Shown here in pieces: positions 1 to 9,577 of a stretch of 12,589 bases of DNA. A program made the translations under genes and the position numbers. Each line of letters begins with the position of its first letter. Position 1 is the stretch's first letter. The stretch comes from a virus. The notes under the pieces were generated by a model. The model searched no databases. It was given only the letters and a program-made list of their open reading frames with translations, and was not told the origin of the DNA. The stretch is from UHGV virus genome UHGV-0247912; one strand, written 5' to 3'.

Positions 1-1158
1 GAGATAGCTGATCGTGATGGCCTGTCAGCCAGGATAAGCCCAAAAGGGAAAATTACTTTCCAGTACCGTTACAGATTCAACGGTAAGCCAGTGCGAATGA
101 AGATCGGTGAATACGGGAAAATGAGTCTGAAAGACGCCCGCTATGCGGTGTCTGAATACAGGGAGTTGCTTACGAAAGGGAAGAATCCGGCACTGTGCGT
201 AAAGCAGGCCATAGCCTTTGAGCAGGGCAAGCGATCTATATCCGACGTAGTGGAAGACTATCTATCCCTGCCGAACGTCATTAAGCTGGTGGCATATAAA
301 GAAGTCAAAAGCGCATTGATGCGCCACGTAGTCAACAAGTACGGCGACTACATAGCTGACGACGTAACGACAAAACAGTGGATGGATATATTTGGCGAGA
401 TCACTGCGGCGGGTCACGCGGTTACGGCTGGTTTGATATTGAAGCGAATGAAAATCATCGTTAACAGCGCAATCAGGCGTGGGCTAATGACTAACACGGC
501 GATAAACAATATCCGTGTAGCTGACGTTGGCGAGCATTATGCGGTGGTGGAGCGTTACCTTTCATGTGAGGAGATAGGCCACTTCTGGCGCACGGTAGAC
601 AGTTCGCAGATCTATCCGCAGAACAAAATAGCCTTAAAGCTATTATTGCTAACCGGGTGCAGGGTTGGTGAATTGCAGAAAATGAGAAGGGAACACCTAG
701 ATCTGGACAACGGTGTATGGACCGTTCCGGCGGCGGTGGCGAAGACAAGAAGTGAAATCAGGCGGGGATTATCTGACTTGTCGATAAAAATGCTCAGGGA
801 GGTTTTAACCTCCCATGAGTATGATTATGTATTCCCGCCAGTGATTAACGGCGGCAACAGGCCAGTAAACGTATCAGTGATAAAAGTAGCTGCAATATTC
901 GTGCGTAAAAGGATGGGCGGTAAATCATGGTCCTGTCACGACCTCCGCAGGACGTGCCGGACACACCTTTCAGCTATAGGTGTTCCGGTACATATTGCAG
1001 AAAAGATCTTAGGCCATTCATTAAGGGGAATACTGGCGGTGTACGACAAATATGATTATCTTGATGAACAAAAGGAGGCACTAAATAAGTTTGCTGATTA
1101 TGTGTTATCTTTGGCTGACGTTAAACCAATCCGATCAAAGAACTGCATTACGTCCTGA
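1..1158 (+). CDS. int: tyrosine recombinase / phage integrase (P4-type); N-terminus lies upstream of the window
   Basis: Frame 1 is open from base 1 (EIADRDGLSARISPKGKITFQYRYRFNGKPVRMKIGEY...), typical integrase N-terminal domain. C-terminal catalytic region has HDLRRT, LGHS and a Tyr near the end (AVYDKYDYL), i.e. the R-H-R-Y pattern. Stop TGA at 1156-1158. Confidence 0.9.
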   Translation, partial: EIADRDGLSARISPKGKITFQYRYRFNGKPVRMKIGEYGKMSLKDARYAVSEYRELLTKGKNPALCVKQAIAFEQGKRSISDVVEDYLSLPNVIKLVAYKEVKSALMRHVVNKYGDYIADDVTTKQWMDIFGEITAAGHAVTAGLILKRMKIIVNSAIRRGLMTNTAINNIRVADVGEHYAVVERYLSCEEIGHFWRTVDSSQIYPQNKIALKLLLLTGCRVGELQKMRREHLDLDNGVWTVPAAVAKTRSEIRRGLSDLSIKMLREVLTSHEYDYVFPPVINGGNRPVNVSVIKVAAIFVRKRMGGKSWSCHDLRRTCRTHLSAIGVPVHIAEKILGHSLRGILAVYDKYDYLDEQKEALNKFADYVLSLADVKPIRSKNCITS

Positions 1159-3626: not shown

Positions 3627-5042
3627 TTAAAAAGATGCGTTATTCTGATTGTTTCGTTGGTTAAATCGGCTTGTGCGATGATTCATGGACTGAATACATG
3701 CAGACGCTGCGCGGGCCTGGTCACAAGGGAGGATATTGCCGTTGTCATCAAACCGCTGGTAAACAGTGCCAGTTTTCCCGTGACGGTTTTTAGATACAAT
3801 TATTTCCATATATTCGCGTGCTACAGACTGTTCATCGTAGTAACCATCGCGGTACACCATGATGATCCTGTCTGCATCTTGCTCAAGGTTCCCTGAATCA
3901 CGAAGATCAGAATTGTTAGGACGCTTGTTCGGGCGCTCCTCAACGCGGCGGGACAACTGCGCCAGCGCCAACACTGGTACGCGCAATTCTTTCGCCATCA
4001 TCTTCAACGACCACGACAATTGCCCTACAGCGAGATCGTGACGTTCGGCCTTAGCCAGCTTCATCAACCCTATGTAGTCAATCATTACCATACCCATGCT
4101 GGGGTGTTCCTGTTTCATCCGTTCTACGGTGGCGCGCATTTCCTCAACCGTTAACTGCGAAGCGTCAACGATCCACACATCAAGGTTAGCAAGTGCGCTC
4201 ATTCCCTGGCCGACATGCGCCCAACCATCATCATCAAGTTTTACCGGATTGCGCAGGCAGTCAGTTGATAAATTACCAGCGCCAGCGATGGCACGTTCGG
4301 TCATCTGATCGAGTGACATCTCAAGCGTGAAGAACAAAACGCCAACACGCTGATCCTTGCTGCCAGGGTAAGGGCATTCAGCAGCAGCGCGGGCAATTGC
4401 CAGCGCCAACGCAGATTTACCAGACCCAGGACGTCCGGCGAGAAGCACCAAATCAGTAGCGTTAATGCCGCCTAACATTTCGTCGAGTGGTTCTATCCCC
4501 GTTTTGATGTTGTCAGAATTGACACCGCATTCCATGCGTTTGCTTAACACCTCCGTGTATTCCTGTACCGCATCGCGCAACAACACCGGAATGATCTTGT
4601 CTTTCGTTACCTTTAATTTTGAATACCGGGAATCAAAATCCTTCATCGTTTCTTTGACTACTTCAAGCGTCCCCGTTTCCAGTTTGTAGCGCATATCGTC
4701 GATGAGTTCCAACATCTGCCGCCGCTGGTGCTCTTCACGTAGTAGCTGTGCGTATCCCTTCAGGTTGGCAGCAGAAGGACACGATCGCGCCGTTTGCATC
4801 AGTGGTACAAAGTTTTCATTGCCAATCTCATCGCCAACCAATAACGCGTCTATAAGATTTCTGTTTCTGGCTTGCGCCCGGATAACTTCAAACGCACGTT
4901 TATAAAGCGGGATCGTGAACACTTCAGGATCAAGCGTGGCGAGAACATCTTGCGCGTTAGGAGTAAGGCCACCCAACAACAGCCCGCCGATAACTGACGC
5001 CTCACGTTCCTGCCGTAGTGAGTTTATTTGCTCAGTTACCAT
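3627..5042 (-). CDS. replicative DNA helicase, DnaB family
   Basis: 471 aa; Walker A GRPGSGKS, DnaB-type motifs (FFTLEMS, IIVSKNRHGKTG, RFDDNG); RBS GGAGGAAA 8 nt before the ATG at 5042. C-terminal tail is longer than in E. coli DnaB. Confidence 0.9.
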   Translation of the reverse strand: MVTEQINSLRQEREASVIGGLLLGGLTPNAQDVLATLDPEVFTIPLYKRAFEVIRAQARNRNLIDALLVGDEIGNENFVPLMQTARSCPSAANLKGYAQLLREEHQRRQMLELIDDMRYKLETGTLEVVKETMKDFDSRYSKLKVTKDKIIPVLLRDAVQEYTEVLSKRMECGVNSDNIKTGIEPLDEMLGGINATDLVLLAGRPGSGKSALALAIARAAAECPYPGSKDQRVGVLFFTLEMSLDQMTERAIAGAGNLSTDCLRNPVKLDDDGWAHVGQGMSALANLDVWIVDASQLTVEEMRATVERMKQEHPSMGMVMIDYIGLMKLAKAERHDLAVGQLSWSLKMMAKELRVPVLALAQLSRRVEERPNKRPNNSDLRDSGNLEQDADRIIMVYRDGYYDEQSVAREYMEIIVSKNRHGKTGTVYQRFDDNGNILPCDQARAASACIQSMNHRTSRFNQRNNQNNASF

Positions 5043-5060
5043 TATGTTATTTCCTCCGGT

Positions 5061-6179
5061 TTACAAAATGGAAAATTCAGGGTAATAAACAAAGCGCCCG
5101 ATCTCTCCATGATCCTGGCTGTAAATAATAACCGCCGCCAGGCGACGCGACCGCCAGCCGCCATTAGTCGAATAGGCATCCTTACCCGCTAACGTGCCGT
5201 GATACTCAACAACGCCAAGCGATGACTCGATCAGCCGTTGATGATGCCAGTGCCCGCAGTGGGCGTAAACAGCAGCAGACTTGCCGAAATCCTCGCGCCA
5301 GTCAGCTACGCAAGCAGACAATAAATTTTCTGGCTTTTTGATAGTGTGCCCGTGGTGGTAAGCAAGAAATGTTTTGCCGTACTGTGTGTGGTGGACGATA
5401 GCAGGGGACACATCAACCGTCACGCGCGGTTCATCTTCGTAAAAAGCCGCCAGCGCCGCACGTAGCCAAATCATGCCTGACTGATCGTGATTGCCTGATA
5501 ACACCTGGATTTCAACATCTTTATGATTTAACAACATCTTTCCTACCGCCCGCCGTACAGACCGGATCGCCACATAAACAAGTTTTGCGTAGCGACTATC
5601 CTGATCAAGAATATGCCCGCTTGTTGGCGTAACCGGGACCATACCATCAGAATGAAGCAGGTCACCACCGAGAAGTAAGACGGCTTTTTCAGACATCGGA
5701 GCAGCGCCAACGGCATAATCAAAGAAGTTATTTAGCACGCGTTCAGCGATCCCAGTGTCGTAGCTCTCGCCGCATTCAGCTTTATGGGCAAGCGCCCCGA
5801 TATGCAGATCAAACACAGGATAAAGGGCCAGGCTTTTTTGAAAATCAATTTCAGGCACTGGCACAGCCTCCGCGCGTGGTATTTCATCAGTGAAAGCGTC
5901 GCGGGCCGCTTCCATTAGCTGTTCCATTTCTTCGCGGTCACGGGCTGTTTTAATCCAGCGCATGATAACATTGCCGTTCTTATCCACTAGCAACGACTCA
6001 CCATTGACGCCAAAACCAGGCGCGCGGCGTGTTGATAATAAACCCCGTTTCGCCAGTTTTGCGCCCAGGCGTTCGACATTGCGTTTAGACATGCCGTACT
6101 TTTCAGCGATCTGTTTGTACGTTAATCCGTTGTTATATTCAGCGATCAATTGCTCATCACTGATTTTTCTTTGCGACAT
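5061..6179 (-). CDS. HTH domain + calcineurin-like metallophosphoesterase domain protein (372 aa)
   Basis: ATG at 6179 with GGAGGG RBS (the track start at 6203 is an alternative start codon). N-terminal HTH (LTYKQIAEKYGMSKRNVERLGAKLAKRGLL); phosphoesterase-type motifs FDLH, GGDLLHSDG, GNHD, HHGH, GHWHH. Confidence 0.7.
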   Translation of the reverse strand: MSQRKISDEQLIAEYNNGLTYKQIAEKYGMSKRNVERLGAKLAKRGLLSTRRAPGFGVNGESLLVDKNGNVIMRWIKTARDREEMEQLMEAARDAFTDEIPRAEAVPVPEIDFQKSLALYPVFDLHIGALAHKAECGESYDTGIAERVLNNFFDYAVGAAPMSEKAVLLLGGDLLHSDGMVPVTPTSGHILDQDSRYAKLVYVAIRSVRRAVGKMLLNHKDVEIQVLSGNHDQSGMIWLRAALAAFYEDEPRVTVDVSPAIVHHTQYGKTFLAYHHGHTIKKPENLLSACVADWREDFGKSAAVYAHCGHWHHQRLIESSLGVVEYHGTLAGKDAYSTNGGWRSRRLAAVIIYSQDHGEIGRFVYYPEFSIL

Positions 6180-6212
6180 AATGTTAATCCCTCCAGTTAA
6201 CAAAATGTATAC

Positions 6213-6944
6213 CTACTTACACGCAAAAAGTTCAGACACCCAAAGTTGACCCTTAGCAGTAAATAGTGATTGGACGTAACCTCCAGCCGAACATTTTACC
6301 ACTCCATAGCCTTTGTCTACGAACCACTGCTTGAACATACGCCCGCCGCGCTTAATTCTCGTATCGTACACGTCAACCTGTTCAAGTTTTTTGTTGAGTT
6401 GCGTAGCAGTCATACCCAAAGGCTTGGCAACCTGTGTAGCGTTGCGATGCTGTTCGTTTCTTACAATCGCATCACAGACAGCCGCTTTCGGTGCTAATTC
6501 CTTATTTTCCAGCGCCAGACGATCAATTTCTTTCTGTGCTAATAGTTTTTGTTCAACCTCATCAGCCCATGCGCGAGCCGCCGCCACCGGATCAGTGAAA
6601 TCCGGCAAAGCTGGCTGCCGTACCTGTTTTTCGAGTTCCTGCCAGCGATCGACAAGTCGCGCCGTAAATTCAGGGCAGTTTTGAGCAACGACAATTATAC
6701 TATCTCGCTTGCCCTGCTCGCCTTCAAAAACGTAGGCCTTATCTTTTACCTTGAATCCTAAGTTATTGATTCTTTCGAGAAACTGCAATGCAGGACGCCG
6801 GATTACACCTTTATCAGCAAGGCGTTCTATAGAAACAAGCATGTTATCGTGACGGAACTTATTAACTCCGTTCCACTTATTTAGAAAATCAACGATCTCA
6901 ATACTGTTCATCTTAACAGCATCAAACACCATTAATTCAGACAT
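6213..6944 (-). CDS. rha: Rha-family phage regulatory protein / antirepressor-like (Rha N-terminal domain + ANT/KilAC-like C-terminal domain)
   Basis: ATG at 6944 with GGAG RBS. N-terminus has SIEIVDFLNKWNGVNKFRHDNMLVSIERL (the RHDN signature of Rha); C-terminus has ATQVAKPLGMTATQLNKKLEQVDVYDTRIKRGGRMFKQWFVDKGYG. Confidence 0.7.
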   Translation of the reverse strand: MSELMVFDAVKMNSIEIVDFLNKWNGVNKFRHDNMLVSIERLADKGVIRRPALQFLERINNLGFKVKDKAYVFEGEQGKRDSIIVVAQNCPEFTARLVDRWQELEKQVRQPALPDFTDPVAAARAWADEVEQKLLAQKEIDRLALENKELAPKAAVCDAIVRNEQHRNATQVAKPLGMTATQLNKKLEQVDVYDTRIKRGGRMFKQWFVDKGYGVVKCSAGGYVQSLFTAKGQLWVSELFACK

Positions 6945-7076
6945 TGTAATTTCTCCGTAAAACGCGCTACAACGCAAAAATCCCACCGCGTAACCCGTTT
7001 GCACAGGTTGCAGTGTCTTATTGCGTTATAGACGCTCTCAGGTGGCTAATTTTTGATTTACAGGATGGTATGAAGG

Positions 7077-7178
7077 TTATAGATTGACCAGAAGGAACAA
7101 ACCGCCGAACAAAGCGACGTTAACGGCGATTGCAGCAGCGATGGCAAAAGCCAGGGCAAAAACGTGTTTACCGTCCAT
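7077..7178 (-). CDS. small hydrophobic single-helix peptide (33 aa)
   Basis: MDGKHVFALAFAIAAAIAVNVALFGGLFLLVNL; strong RBS GAGAGGA about 8 nt before the ATG at 7178; hand-translated codon by codon. It is the C-terminal part of track ORF 7077..7439. Confidence 0.45.
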   Translation of the reverse strand: MDGKHVFALAFAIAAAIAVNVALFGGLFLLVNL

Positions 7179-7311
7179 TTTGAAATCCTCTCTAAAACGC
7201 TCTCTAACGAGATAAATAGCTAAAGGTATGCAAGTGTAGCACTCAATGCTTTTTAGCTCGCTGGCGAGCTTGTTTTGCGGGTAATTTTGTGTTTTTGCGG
7301 ATCGTGTTTGG

Positions 7312-8364
7312 TCAAAGAGCGCCACATCGTGTATCACGTAGCGTTTTTGGTTTAAGCAGGAAATCAAGTGTCGCAGTGAAGCCATCGCCGAAGTAAAAAT
7401 CTGAAGCATTGTTTTTGAACGTTTCAAAGTAGGCGACAAAGCCGTTAATGCTTTTGTCTTTCAGGTAGTCAGTGAACGCATAAATCTTGCGTTCAAGATC
7501 CCGATCCAGTTCGGCAGGTGGCAACATGCCATCAAACGTGCTGTTAAATGCCTCCACTACGTCGGCAGCGTTTGCAGTGGCTGACAGTTTGCGCCATTTT
7601 TCAGCATCAGCCAGATACCCATCAAATTTAGTCACCCGGCAAATGTTTATAGGCTTAGGTGTTCCACCACGGCTACGCCATTGCGTTAAAGCCCACTCAA
7701 TCACTAATGTGATCTCATCCTCCGTATACGCTTTACGTGTTTTTGTTTCTGTCAGTAGTTCTACGAATGGCTTAGCATCACGACATTTACACCCTGCCTT
7801 TTCGTTGTAGAAGTCAAGGCAACGCAATGCCGCATCGCTTATCTGAAAGTCACCATCCTGATTAACTTCTTTTCTTTTTATATTTTTCTTTTCTTCTTCT
7901 GTTTCTTTTTCTTCTTCTACTTCTATTTCTAATTCATGACCCTTTCCTGACCCGGTCATGACCCTATCATGACCCTTTGGTGTTGGATTGATTAACTTTT
8001 CTAATTTTAATTGCTCCTTCGCTGTGTTTATGGCGGCCCTGTAAGCGCTTTTAGAAGTCATTGATTGGTCCAGCCTTTTCAATAACTTTAAACAAGTTAT
8101 GTGGCCTTGAGAACATTCAAACAAACCAATTTCGATGAAGTATTTCATCATTTCTTCTATACGTTTTTCAGTAGATCCGACGTTTCGCGCAATGATTCTC
8201 GCGTCATGTCGTAGGTCAAAAGTCAGATTGTGCTGATCTACGTCATAAGTTATTAGTTCGAGGCAATACCAATAAAGCCCGTACCCTTCCAGGCCATAAT
8301 CTAACAAAACGTTTTGAAGTTTTTCATCGCGGTTCGCATCGCTGTCATGCTTAAACCACTTCAT
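7312..8364 (-). CDS. replication initiation protein / replisome organizer (O-like, phage replisome-organizer N-terminal domain type)
   Basis: 350 aa; N-terminus MKWFKHDSDANRDEKLQNVLLDYGLEGYGLYWYCLELI matches the replisome-organizer N-terminal domain pattern; acidic/basic linker; RBS GGAGGG; lies directly downstream of the immunity region. Confidence 0.8.
   Translation of the reverse strand: MKWFKHDSDANRDEKLQNVLLDYGLEGYGLYWYCLELITYDVDQHNLTFDLRHDARIIARNVGSTEKRIEEMMKYFIEIGLFECSQGHITCLKLLKRLDQSMTSKSAYRAAINTAKEQLKLEKLINPTPKGHDRVMTGSGKGHELEIEVEEEKETEEEKKNIKRKEVNQDGDFQISDAALRCLDFYNEKAGCKCRDAKPFVELLTETKTRKAYTEDEITLVIEWALTQWRSRGGTPKPINICRVTKFDGYLADAEKWRKLSATANAADVVEAFNSTFDGMLPPAELDRDLERKIYAFTDYLKDKSINGFVAYFETFKNNASDFYFGDGFTATLDFLLKPKTLRDTRCGAL
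7861..7933. repeat. AT-rich homopyrimidine/homopurine tract next to the iterons (candidate DNA unwinding element)
   Basis: About 70 bp almost entirely C/T on the plus strand (cttcttttctttttatatttttcttttcttcttctg...); encodes the Glu/Lys-rich linker of the initiator. Confidence 0.5.
7934..7977. repeat. four tandem 11-bp iterons (TCATGACCCTT-like), candidate origin of replication inside the initiator gene
   Basis: Plus strand units: 7934-7944 tcatgaccctt, 7945-7955 tcctgacccgg, 7956-7966 tcatgacccta, 7967-7977 tcatgaccctt. Units 1 and 4 are identical; the period is one helical turn. Confidence 0.6.
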
Positions 8365-8367
8365 AGA

Positions 8368-8625
8368 TCATCCCTCCGGCAACATCACTACATAGACATC
8401 ACTGAATGCATCAAGACGACAAACAAATCCTTTATCCATTAACGCGGCGAAGGCATCATGTACCGTATGAACAGGAAGTTCACACATTGCGGCTACTTCT
8501 TTGCGTGATGCATCATGTACCCGTCCTTTGTTATCTGCCTTTTCAGCCAGAGCCATTAAGACAAGTTTTTGAATCGGGCTATTAAGTTTTACGTTCCATG
8601 CTTTACTAATCATGTTTATACTCAT
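8368..8625 (-). CDS. small HTH / winged-helix DNA-binding protein (85 aa), first gene of the rightward-type operon (Cro/CII position)
   Basis: ATG at 8625 with AGGAG RBS (track ORF 8368..8703 starts earlier without an RBS); KLVLMALAEKADNKGRVHDASRKEVAAMCELPVHTVHDAFAALMDKGFV looks like a winged-helix DNA-binding domain. Confidence 0.55.
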   Translation of the reverse strand: MSINMISKAWNVKLNSPIQKLVLMALAEKADNKGRVHDASRKEVAAMCELPVHTVHDAFAALMDKGFVCRLDAFSDVYVVMLPEG

Positions 8626-8929: not shown

Positions 8930-9577
8930 ATGAAAACAAAATGGTATGACTTAGCAAAGCAGCTCATGCGGGCGCAGGGCATGAGCCAGGATTCACTCGC
9001 GGATCGTATGGGGATAACTAAAGGCGGCCTGTCACACTGGCTGAACGGTCGCCGAGAGCCAAATCTTGAAGATATTGCGCGGATTATGCGCGAGCTTGGT
9101 CGTCGGCAGTTTACTGTTACACATGATGGCATGGTCATTGATGATTCTGTTTCTAATACACTTCAGGCCGTGCCGCCGCGTGATTTAGGTAGTTACCCGG
9201 TTATTGACTGGAAGGACACAGTAAACAATATGGATGACGCAAGGCGTTCAGCATTACGACACGTTACGACTAGCGTTATTTGTTCAGATGACAGTTACTG
9301 GCTGGTTGCCAAAGGTGAATCAATGAACGCGCCGCAGGGGTTGAGCATCCCGGCGGGGACGATGATACTTGTGGACCCGCACGCGCCAGCTATTGACGGC
9401 AAACTGGTTATAGCCCAGCTTGAGGAAGGGCAGATACCGACGTTTAAACAGTTGATTATTGATGGAGGTCAAAGGCTTTTACGTTCGCTCAATCCGCTGT
9501 ATCCGCCAATCCCTATGAATCCAGAATCAAAAATTATAGGCGTGGTGGTTGATGCGAAGATCGTAAACCTGCCATAA
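8930..9577 (+). CDS. cI: cI-type phage repressor (N-terminal HTH, C-terminal LexA/S24 autopeptidase domain)
   Basis: 215 aa; HTH GMSQDSLADRMGITKGGLSHWLNG; C-terminus GESMNAP...TFKQLIIDGGQRLLRSLNPLYPPIP parallels lambda cI ([24 protein letters not shown]) including the catalytic Ser and Lys. Confidence 0.9.
   Translation: MKTKWYDLAKQLMRAQGMSQDSLADRMGITKGGLSHWLNGRREPNLEDIARIMRELGRRQFTVTHDGMVIDDSVSNTLQAVPPRDLGSYPVIDWKDTVNNMDDARRSALRHVTTSVICSDDSYWLVAKGESMNAPQGLSIPAGTMILVDPHAPAIDGKLVIAQLEEGQIPTFKQLIIDGGQRLLRSLNPLYPPIPMNPESKIIGVVVDAKIVNLP

Follow-up and report, generated by a model that had tools for sequence, protein, structure and literature searches.

Roi and Rha are phage proteins with a link to the host factor IHF. 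Lytic growth of HK022 is inhibited by Roi in IHF mutants (Clerget & Boccard 1996, cited in PMC3430580), the product of P22 rha is detrimental to lytic growth without IHF, with rha itself being regulated by IHF, and products of the P22/phi80 Rha family block phage growth in IHF-defective hosts (PMC4936722). In the Stx 'Eru' phages, genes of the Rha or Rha/Ash type occupy the first positions beside cI, and their products were proposed as possible replication proteins (bioRxiv 10.1101/2021.11.24.469858). The KilAC/ANT domain is present in the antirepressors Ant1/Ant2 of phages P1/P7, from which the family takes its name 'antirepressor', and in AriS (LMRG_02920) from the Listeria phage phi10403S, where it lowers the RecA-dependent SOS response; this effect was seen on overexpression, and deletions tested at the native level brought no change in SOS (PMC9043618). 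In AriS-like dual-function regulators the N-terminal domain varies among AntA, Bro-N and pRha, and the ANT/KilAC C-domain is conserved (PMC9043618). A KilA-type C-terminal domain is also found in Gp07 of the Staphylococcus phage Phi11, where it inhibits growth in E. coli (PMC5944126).

The mEpimmI phages are Nus-dependent and non-lambdoid; antitermination by Gp17/nutL is known in this group, with Gp17 as an N-like antiterminator, and the manual core set of the group includes a 'KilAC-like antirepressor' (PMC11893012). We analyzed a stretch of 12,589 nucleotides from a virus genome (UHGV-0247912), hereafter referred to as the window, which represents the immunity and replication region of a temperate E. 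coli phage of the mEpimmI (mEp021) group, with ~90% nucleotide identity to its relatives (closest matches: mEp515, MagusPhagus, mEp044, mEp554, mEp010, mEp021 and mEp013). The gene considered here (6213-6944) is a new allele of the known Roi/Rha-KilAC family in a known phage group, and its close homologues are already annotated. It lies in an operon divergent from the gene for the CI-type repressor (Table 1). The initiator encoded upstream matches replication-initiation PHROGs, both O-like and DnaD-like, and possesses an O-like/DnaD-like C-terminus. The six mEp phages and MagusPhagus all have a counterpart of the short hydrophobic ORF that follows, annotated there as a 102-bp CDS in the same place. 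The metallophosphoesterase-like gene downstream is found in all related loci; the ATG at 6179, preceded by GGAGGG, is its true start.

Table 1. Features of the window discussed in the text (strand relative to the sequence as presented; residue numbers refer to the 243-aa protein).
Feature	Position	Strand	Basis
Integrase	91-1158	+	Layout
MarR-like gene and NinB	beyond DnaB in the operon	-	Layout
DnaB-type replicative helicase	3627..5042	-	Pfam DnaB_C (E=5e-76) and DnaB N-domain
HTH + metallophosphoesterase-like gene, 372 aa, conserved	5061..6179	-	phrog_704 'DNA repair exonuclease' (E=1e-141)
Cassette, 739 bp	6212..6950	.	blastn breakpoints 6211/6951 against MagusPhagus and mEp010; junction sequences
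Roi/Rha-family two-domain gene, 243 aa	6213..6944	-	ORF, Pfam ANT, PHROG 63, homologues
KilAC/ANT domain, residues 146-240	6225..6509	-	Pfam PF03374, 43.3 bits against a cut-off of 25.3 (E=5.2e-11)
Long predicted helix joining both domains, residues 119-162	6459..6590	-	AlphaFold2, pLDDT 53-65
Rha/Roi-type winged-helix-like N-domain, residues 11-108	6621..6914	-	AlphaFold2 model and homologues
IHF consensus match AATCAATAACTTA (WATCAANNNNTTR), end of R58 through L62	6759..6771	-	Consensus match
7-codon insertion W24-F30, turn between two HTH helices	6855..6875	-	Alignments
Ribosome-binding site GGAGA, part of the shared backbone, immediately upstream of the cassette	6952..6956	-	Junction comparison
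Structured non-coding stretch, conserved, directly upstream of the slot	6953..7047	-	RNA fold and relatives
Hydrophobic 33-codon ORF, conserved (MDGKHVFALAFAIAAAIAVNVALFGGLFLLVNL)	7077..7178	-	ORF list and annotation of relatives
Replication initiator / replisome-organizer-like gene	7312..8364	-	Pfam Lin1244_N (E=7e-11)
Winged-helix gene, 85 aa	8368-8625	-	Layout
CI-type repressor	8930..9577	+	HTH_3 and Peptidase_S24; cI annotation in relatives

The open reading frame of the gene extends over 6213..7004, with the ATG at 6944 as the sensible start, and homologues of the protein begin with the same MSELM. The best database match reaches an E-value of 1.9e-153 and 7101 proteins are found at E<=0.001, so the ORF is not a product of chance. 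A preliminary description of this DNA had placed a gene at exactly these coordinates, and start, ribosome-binding site and length (243 codons) all agree with it. It had also placed the gene between the replisome organizer and the helicase. The three genes do share one strand, but our gene adjoins neither of the others: the 33-codon ORF separates it from the initiator, and the phrog_704 gene separates it from DnaB. Transcription together with these neighbours, likewise proposed there, is plausible: the downstream gaps are 33 nt and then 18 nt, and a consensus scan for sigma-70-like promoters on the minus strand of the 367-nt upstream gap (6945-7311) returned none. Elsewhere around the gene, scans of the same strand for promoters and terminators yielded nothing convincing, with counts at the level of shuffled sequences. 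The non-coding stretch within that gap has an RNA fold of -51 kcal/mol (z=-2.9 versus shuffles) and is kept in 47 loci whatever the content of the slot downstream; a search of the window against Rfam matched no RNA family, and as the alignment fold contains just one compensatory pair, we make no claim for an RNA element or a terminator here. NCBIfam offers no family for the protein, and PADLOC detects no match to a defence system for it or for its neighbour.

The C-terminal half of the protein is a KilAC/ANT domain by a direct Pfam match, as the preliminary description had it. At the level of the whole protein the match to PHROG 63 is strong (E=2.5e-45); this family and PHROG 130 both bear the label 'anti-repressor Ant'. 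The assignment of the N-terminal half is less direct. Phage_pRha (PF09669) gives no match with the complete protein, and the N-terminus alone scores 12.7 bits (E=0.2), below the cut-off of 29.9. Because PF09669 is found at E<=0.001 in 31 of the 32 aligned homologues (the window protein being the sole exception), and because proteins 80-86% identical to it carry PF09669+PF03374 under the NCBI name 'Rha family transcriptional regulator', the N-domain is, by homology, of the Rha type in spite of its sub-threshold score, which upholds the other domain named in the preliminary description. Roi of HK022 likewise stays below the Pfam cut-off for Rha (25.2 bits), and the alignment of the window protein with P22 Rha shows the RH and I-N-x-L-G motifs to be invariant. 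The motif KFRHDNMLVSIERL corresponds to residues 29-42.

The apparent cause of the failed Pfam match is a 7-residue insertion directly preceding the RHDN motif: according to the alignment, it is the sole structural difference, and an 86%-identical protein does have PF09669. The same insertion is present in a 97% identical protein (P0001) with 11 member sequences. In the AlphaFold2 model (overall pLDDT 75, pTM 0.40) the N-domain folds as strand-helix-helix-beta hairpin-helix-helix with pLDDT of 82-91, falling to 73 at residues 21-30, where the insertion is modelled in the turn between the HTH helices; such an insertion could change or even abolish the DNA binding of the HTH. The first part of the long helix that joins the two domains (from PALPDFTDPVAAARAW) is shared in alignments with Bro-N variants of the protein. 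A sequence search of PDB retrieved nothing at E<=1, and Foldseek comparison of the model with PDB gave no match at E<=0.001 and only weak winged-helix resemblances of the MarR/TFIIE/LmrR type, so the predicted fold adds no functional information.

The gene is carried by a cassette whose flanks are both common to phages in which the slot is empty. In blastn comparisons of the window with seven sequenced relatives, positions 6211 and 6951 turned out to be essentially adjacent in MagusPhagus and mEp010, i.e. the slot is empty. With mEp515 and mEp554 the window has no more than the 3' part of the gene in common (6213-6614), the N-terminal coding part having been replaced in these two phages; mEp044 shares 6213-6741 and contains a second gene in the slot, so that a Bro-N+DUF559 gene lies beside a Rha+ANT gene; mEp013 and mEp021 have entirely different genes there. 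A tblastn search with the 243-aa protein found one place only per mEp genome, with mEp021, mEp010 and mEp013 absent among the matches listed. We also retrieved 80 IMG/VR loci by means of the conserved neighbour gene, about 40 of them of the mEpimmI type, and tabulated the slot for the 39 loci with a complete interval from initiator to neighbour. The most frequent occupants are proteins of 166-312 aa with zinc-ribbon (DUF4379/CapR) repeats and T5orf172/MUG113 (15 loci), followed by Bro-N+ANT (6), Rha+ANT with three N-terminal subtypes (6), a 351-aa protein with a DUF559 endonuclease-like end (5), Rha with another C-terminus (2) and a 77-aa MarR-like protein (1); four slots hold nothing. A sequence-anchored scan, which adds locus L036 and counts the short ORF of L043 as empty, gives six empty IMG/VR slots instead of four and, together with mEp010 and MagusPhagus, 8 empty slots out of 47. 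The insertion junctions are sharp and shared between relatives. All Ant-like occupants start with MSELM or MSDLM, so that the upstream recombination junction falls within the first codons. Among 5426 complete genomes of E. coli, 35 have the neighbouring gene at a coverage of at least 80%; only three of these 35 show even a partial nucleotide match to the 6213-6944 gene, and none matches it at 80% or more.

By synteny, then, the gene is an optional, exchangeable accessory cassette in a variable slot of the early operon. The preliminary description had regarded its position as unusual for a gene of a usually accessory type; that claim does not stand, as the position is itself an accessory slot, from which the cassette is precisely absent in mEp010 and MagusPhagus. 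The opposite finding it had named, a conserved fixture of the replication module with a role in replication, did not emerge either, synteny indicating that the gene is neither conserved nor needed. A function as a replication accessory factor, for instance one that helps to load DnaB at the origin, might be suggested by the location between the initiator and helicase genes and by the Rha-domain proteins at replication-gene positions in the 'Eru' phages (bioRxiv 10.1101/2021.11.24.469858). Yet 8 of the 47 related genomes have nothing in the slot, among them that of mEp010, a propagated phage (PMC11893012), and the slot is filled with unrelated genes in most of the others, and comparisons with Pfam, PHROG and NCBIfam show no similarity of the protein to any family of loaders or initiators. 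Because viable relatives have the slot empty or occupied by unrelated genes, the gene is, on this comparative evidence, dispensable for replication and no part of the replication machinery; a replication role, which synteny largely refutes, was rejected as highly improbable. Nor does the location call for one: lambdoid roi shares the pR operon with O and P, and a place in the replication-gene operon is therefore normal for the Roi family.

The same comparisons bear on whether the cassette is of any benefit to the phage. The slot could be a landing pad for free-standing genes of the DNA-binding or endonuclease type that pass from one related phage to another, and the cassette a largely selfish mobile element that brings its carrier little. 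The sharp, shared junctions agree with such a picture, as do the nuclease-like genes seen in the slot (zinc-ribbon+T5orf172/MUG113, DUF559, Bro-N+DUF559) and an HNH endonuclease gene inserted next door in mEp515, mEp021 and mEp010. The window protein, however, contains no nuclease domain recognisable by Pfam, and both its intact ORF and the preservation of the family in intact form across very many phages argue for a selected function, so we regard this explanation as decidedly unlikely.

The label 'antirepressor-like' used in the preliminary description is correct as a family label; as a statement on function it is opposed by the annotation of Roi, the closest characterised relative, as a DNA-binding protein. 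A true antirepressor would inactivate a CI-type repressor, either that of its own phage, thereby locking the lytic decision, or those of other prophages, thereby cross-inducing them. KilAC/ANT is indeed the domain of P1/P7 Ant1/Ant2 (PMC9043618), the names of PHROG 63 and 130 point in the same direction, and a gene for an S24-type CI repressor is located nearby. On the other hand, a classical role of this kind becomes less likely because the gene is situated downstream in an operon repressed by CI: with no promoter of its own detected by the consensus scan, it would be unable to start the induction of its own prophage. Antirepressors are expressed independently of their repressor, and, judging by the same scan, the window gene would not be. 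Related phages with an identical cI manage without the gene. Furthermore, in the Jedunavirus phage KpV79 the Rha+KilAC homologues lie in a stretch without an annotated repressor or integrase, which argues against a function tied to a repressor. Taking both sides together, we consider antirepressor activity unlikely; if present, it would be of a feed-forward or cross-prophage kind.

One feature of the slot concerns the C-terminal half in particular. Between the KilAC half of the window protein and the C-terminal half of Bro-N+ANT proteins from mEp515, mEp554 and the IMG/VR loci, identity amounts to 92-96%, so that Bro-N and Rha-type domains are swapped on a nearly constant partner; this observation fits the picture of KilAC as an effector drawn from AriS and Gp07. 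The protein could accordingly be thought of as a damper of the SOS response similar to AriS, with KilAC inhibiting RecA activity after induction and tuning prophage induction, and with the N-domain being of secondary importance. The AriS-like architecture and the swapping just described speak for it, and so does the CI protein of the window, which is of the S24 self-cleaving type; such repressors are RecA-dependent. What makes us judge it quite unlikely is that the SOS effect of AriS was obtained by overexpression, with SOS unchanged in native-level deletions (PMC9043618), that the evidence comes from Firmicutes and the similarity between the KilAC domains is at the family level only, and that the conserved intragenic IHF site described below would be left unexplained.

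The window contains two matches to the IHF consensus WATCAANNNNTTR, one of them inside the 6213-6944 gene at nt 174-186, which becomes nt 153-165 after discounting the 21-nt insertion. The identical 13-mer AATCAATAACTTA is found at the homologous codons of HK620 roi and at the equivalent position of the Rha domain in P22 rha, and in HK022 roi this place is taken by AATCAATGATTTA; each is the only match in its locus (9.7 kb, 8.7 kb and 10.7 kb, respectively), and the background amounts to 0.2 matches per kb on both strands of 451 kb of related loci. Among the slot genes, three types (L009, L011 and L037) have the consensus at nt 153, the L014 type has it in a different frame, at nt 184, and in all Bro-N genes it is found on the other strand, around nt 141; the peptides spanned by it differ (RINNL, IINDL). 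No exact match was found in two types of Rha slot genes, L012 and mEp044_11, the latter showing in alignment a near-match with one mismatch (AAACAATCACTTA), and neither the zinc-ribbon and DUF559 occupants nor the empty slots have the consensus at that position. More than 120 IMG/VR contigs contain the 20-nt block around the site, and of the ~90 distinct sequences that we inspected nearly all have it 144-153 nt into a Roi-type gene.

We read the intragenic IHF consensus as a hallmark of the rha/roi family that the window gene carries as well. For Roi and Rha the site itself is probably old knowledge. Roi reportedly binds within its own gene beside an IHF site; our literature search for papers on Roi together with IHF found none. 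Its persistence across reading frames, strands and types of N-domain may, on the other hand, not be old knowledge. One might speculate, though we would give it little credence, that the site is kept at the level of DNA, whatever the protein sequence, and that these genes double as cis-acting, IHF-dependent nucleoprotein elements. In that case, the element of the window phage, which follows the initiator gene and precedes that of the helicase, could act as a gate, set by the IHF level of the host, for transcription that proceeds into the helicase and nin-type genes, and the slot would then hold a swappable checkpoint by which host physiology acts on phage replication.

Against this background we propose that the gene is, on balance probably, an IHF-coupled early DNA-binding regulator, i.e. 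an accessory gene of the roi/rha family. It would be expressed only after CI repression has been lifted, on the transcript of the replication genes, with read-through helped by the N-like antiterminator Gp17. By comparison with HK022 Roi and P22/phi80 Rha, the Rha-type domain may bind DNA in a sequence-specific manner and tune early lytic development; its expression or action may be coupled to host IHF through the intragenic consensus, and, as with these homologues, the protein could impair phage growth in the absence of IHF. The relatives that suggest these functions are at most 40% identical to the window protein, P22 Rha only 20%. On the model of AriS from Listeria, KilAC would provide the constant effector half and the swappable N-domain the phage-specific targeting to DNA.

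In itself the gene is of little importance: what looked like a regulator embedded in the replication machinery is better described as an optional Roi-type cassette in a hot-spot. The slot may be of wider use, as it documents a hypervariable site within the replication operon of the recently described mEpimmI phages that samples a domain-shuffling set of Bro-N, Rha, KilAC, T5orf172 and DUF559. The residual interest lies in the fixed intragenic IHF consensus, here placed between initiator and helicase genes; its presence at one domain position from P22 Rha to the window phage provides a handle on an IHF-dependence that has stayed unexplained for 30 years.

Comparison with the systems described at the outset shows what the window gene shares with each of them. 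The Ant1/Ant2 proteins of P1/P7 have an AntA/AntB N-domain instead of a Rha-type one, and their genes are read from an immunity region dedicated to them, whereas the consensus scan detected no promoter belonging to the window gene. Gp07 of Phi11 has the same two-domain plan, a DNA-binding N-domain followed by a KilA/ANT-type C-domain, but its N-domain is of the Bro type, it comes from a staphylococcal phage and its phenotype is one of overexpression only. With its Bro-N and Rha N-domains on a 92-96% identical KilAC half and its early expression class, the slot agrees with the definition of AriS-like genes; AriS itself has an AntA/AntB N-domain, belongs to a phage of a Gram-positive host and possesses a KilAC domain very distant from ours, no link of AriS to IHF has been reported, and damping of SOS is not known from any member in enterobacterial phages. 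The 'Eru' phages resemble the window in having a Rha-domain gene in the early or replication region of a non-lambda-type E. coli prophage; the window phage differs in that it has a clear initiator as well as DnaB, with the Rha gene as an optional addition. P22 Rha combines PF09669 with PF10549 (an ORF11CD3 C-domain) in place of KilAC, and its gene belongs to the late region, where it follows the lysis genes.

The closest counterpart is Roi. A tblastn search of GenBank phages with the 243-aa protein hit 962 records, and beyond the mEp phages the full-length matches include Roi of HK620, H-19B, CUS-3, HK75 and many Stx phages, which align over 98% of the length at 40-41% identity; these genes adjoin ninF and are annotated either 'DNA-binding protein Roi' or 'anti-repressor Ant'. 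Roi of HK620 is collinear with the window protein over residues 1-237 (40% identity, E=1e-43) and Roi of HK022 is 39.8% identical to it, both having the Rha+ANT architecture. The N-domain is the better conserved half; KilAC of the window protein has diverged (43 bits compared with 113 for that of Roi) and resembles it only weakly, and the insertion in the HTH turn occurs in the window protein, not in Roi. The Roi phages are lambdoid and the window phage is not (PMC11893012). In HK620 the order of genes is pR-cro-cII-O-P(DnaB-like)-ninA-ninB-ninE-ninF-roi-...-Q, which places lambdoid roi in the nin region, after the helicase gene, whereas the window gene follows the initiator gene and precedes that of the helicase, two genes further upstream.

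The variable slot that lies between the initiator gene and phrog_704, occupied in the window by the Roi/Rha-family gene, holds in some other phages of this group genes whose products carry one, two, three or more tandem zinc-ribbon modules (DUF4379/CapR-homology, ~60 aa each) followed by a T5orf172/MUG113 (GIY-YIG-like) domain. These proteins are 166–178, 240, 303–312 or 495 aa long. A DNA-binding repeat here varies in copy number between phages that are nearly identical. A conserved non-coding stretch found in 47 of 47 related loci, regardless of slot content, folds into a long imperfect hairpin (terminal GCGCG-UUUUAC, z=-2.9). Its G-U pairs speak for the operon-sense strand. With a single compensatory pair, covariation is weak, and a search for an Rfam match to the hairpin returned none. 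The hairpin may serve as a terminator or attenuator, read through by Gp17, the N-like antiterminator of this group. A hydrophobic 33-codon ORF (MDGKHVFALAFAIAAAIAVNVALFGGLFLLVNL), which carries a 102-bp CDS annotation in 7 of 7 GenBank relatives, looks like a gene for a single-pass membrane peptide encoded within the replication operon.

Further upstream, the 85-aa protein matches PHROG "replication initiation" families just in their N-terminal winged-helix part (positions 1–89 of 223), and the product of the following gene combines Lin1244_N with an O-like C-terminus; the initiator function seems to be split over the two genes. No separate cro-like gene is obvious in the window between cI and the 85-aa gene, and no DnaC/P-type loader is evident in its replication operon.

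On the other side of the slot, the phrog_704 gene lies invariably immediately upstream of DnaB in every mEpimmI locus. Its protein product recurs at 59–67% identity in ~40 other viral contigs, without a nearby match to the window DnaB, and Klebsiella Sin4-like phages match the gene at the DNA level. The phrog_704/DnaB junction, merely an 18-nt gap in the window, is a second insertion hot-spot of the same operon. In mEp515, mEp021 and mEp010 an HNH/homing endonuclease gene lies between the two genes.

Features in the window and in compared loci (L-numbers)
Feature	Position	Strand	Remark
IHF consensus match, second in window	window 9445-9457	-	within cI coding sequence
85-aa protein gene	window 8368-8625	-	
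Initiator gene	window 7312-8364	-	next after 85-aa gene
Hydrophobic 33-codon ORF	window 7077-7178	-	between initiator gene and slot
Conserved non-coding stretch	window 6953-7047	-	directly upstream of slot
IHF consensus match	window 6759-6771	-	within Roi/Rha-family gene
IHF consensus match	L088 4653-4665		reference locus (roi or rha)
IHF consensus match	L090 4808-4820		reference locus (roi or rha)
IHF consensus match	L211 6836-6848		reference locus (roi or rha)
IHF consensus in slot genes	L001, L004, L005, L008-L011, L014, L021, L028, L037, L041, L073		
Zinc-ribbon + T5orf172/MUG113 slot genes	L016, L015, L039, L002 (mEp021_12), L007 (mEp013_12)		between initiator and phrog_704 genes
372-aa protein gene	window 5061-6179	-	phrog_704 match at E=1e-141 ("DNA repair exonuclease"); HTH at the N-terminus, remainder metallophosphoesterase-like
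HNH/homing endonuclease gene insertions	L001 5608-6162; L002 5034-5537; L006 1999-2589		equivalent to window ~5043-5060

An IHF consensus match recurs in most related loci at the position corresponding to that in the window cI gene. An additional ~140-bp segment that separates the slot gene from the phrog_704 gene in three loci (L024, L034, L035) has an IHF consensus of its own, in opposite-strand orientation and some 110 nt ahead of the phrog_704 start. Among slot genes, the consensus recurs in a different reading frame in the L014 type, and in inverted orientation in Bro-N cassette genes. None of the three reference loci has a consensus match besides the one in roi or rha, and the consensus, mostly AATCAATAACTTA, occupies a single fixed coding position of the Rha domain in the window gene, in roi of HK620 and HK022, and in rha of P22.
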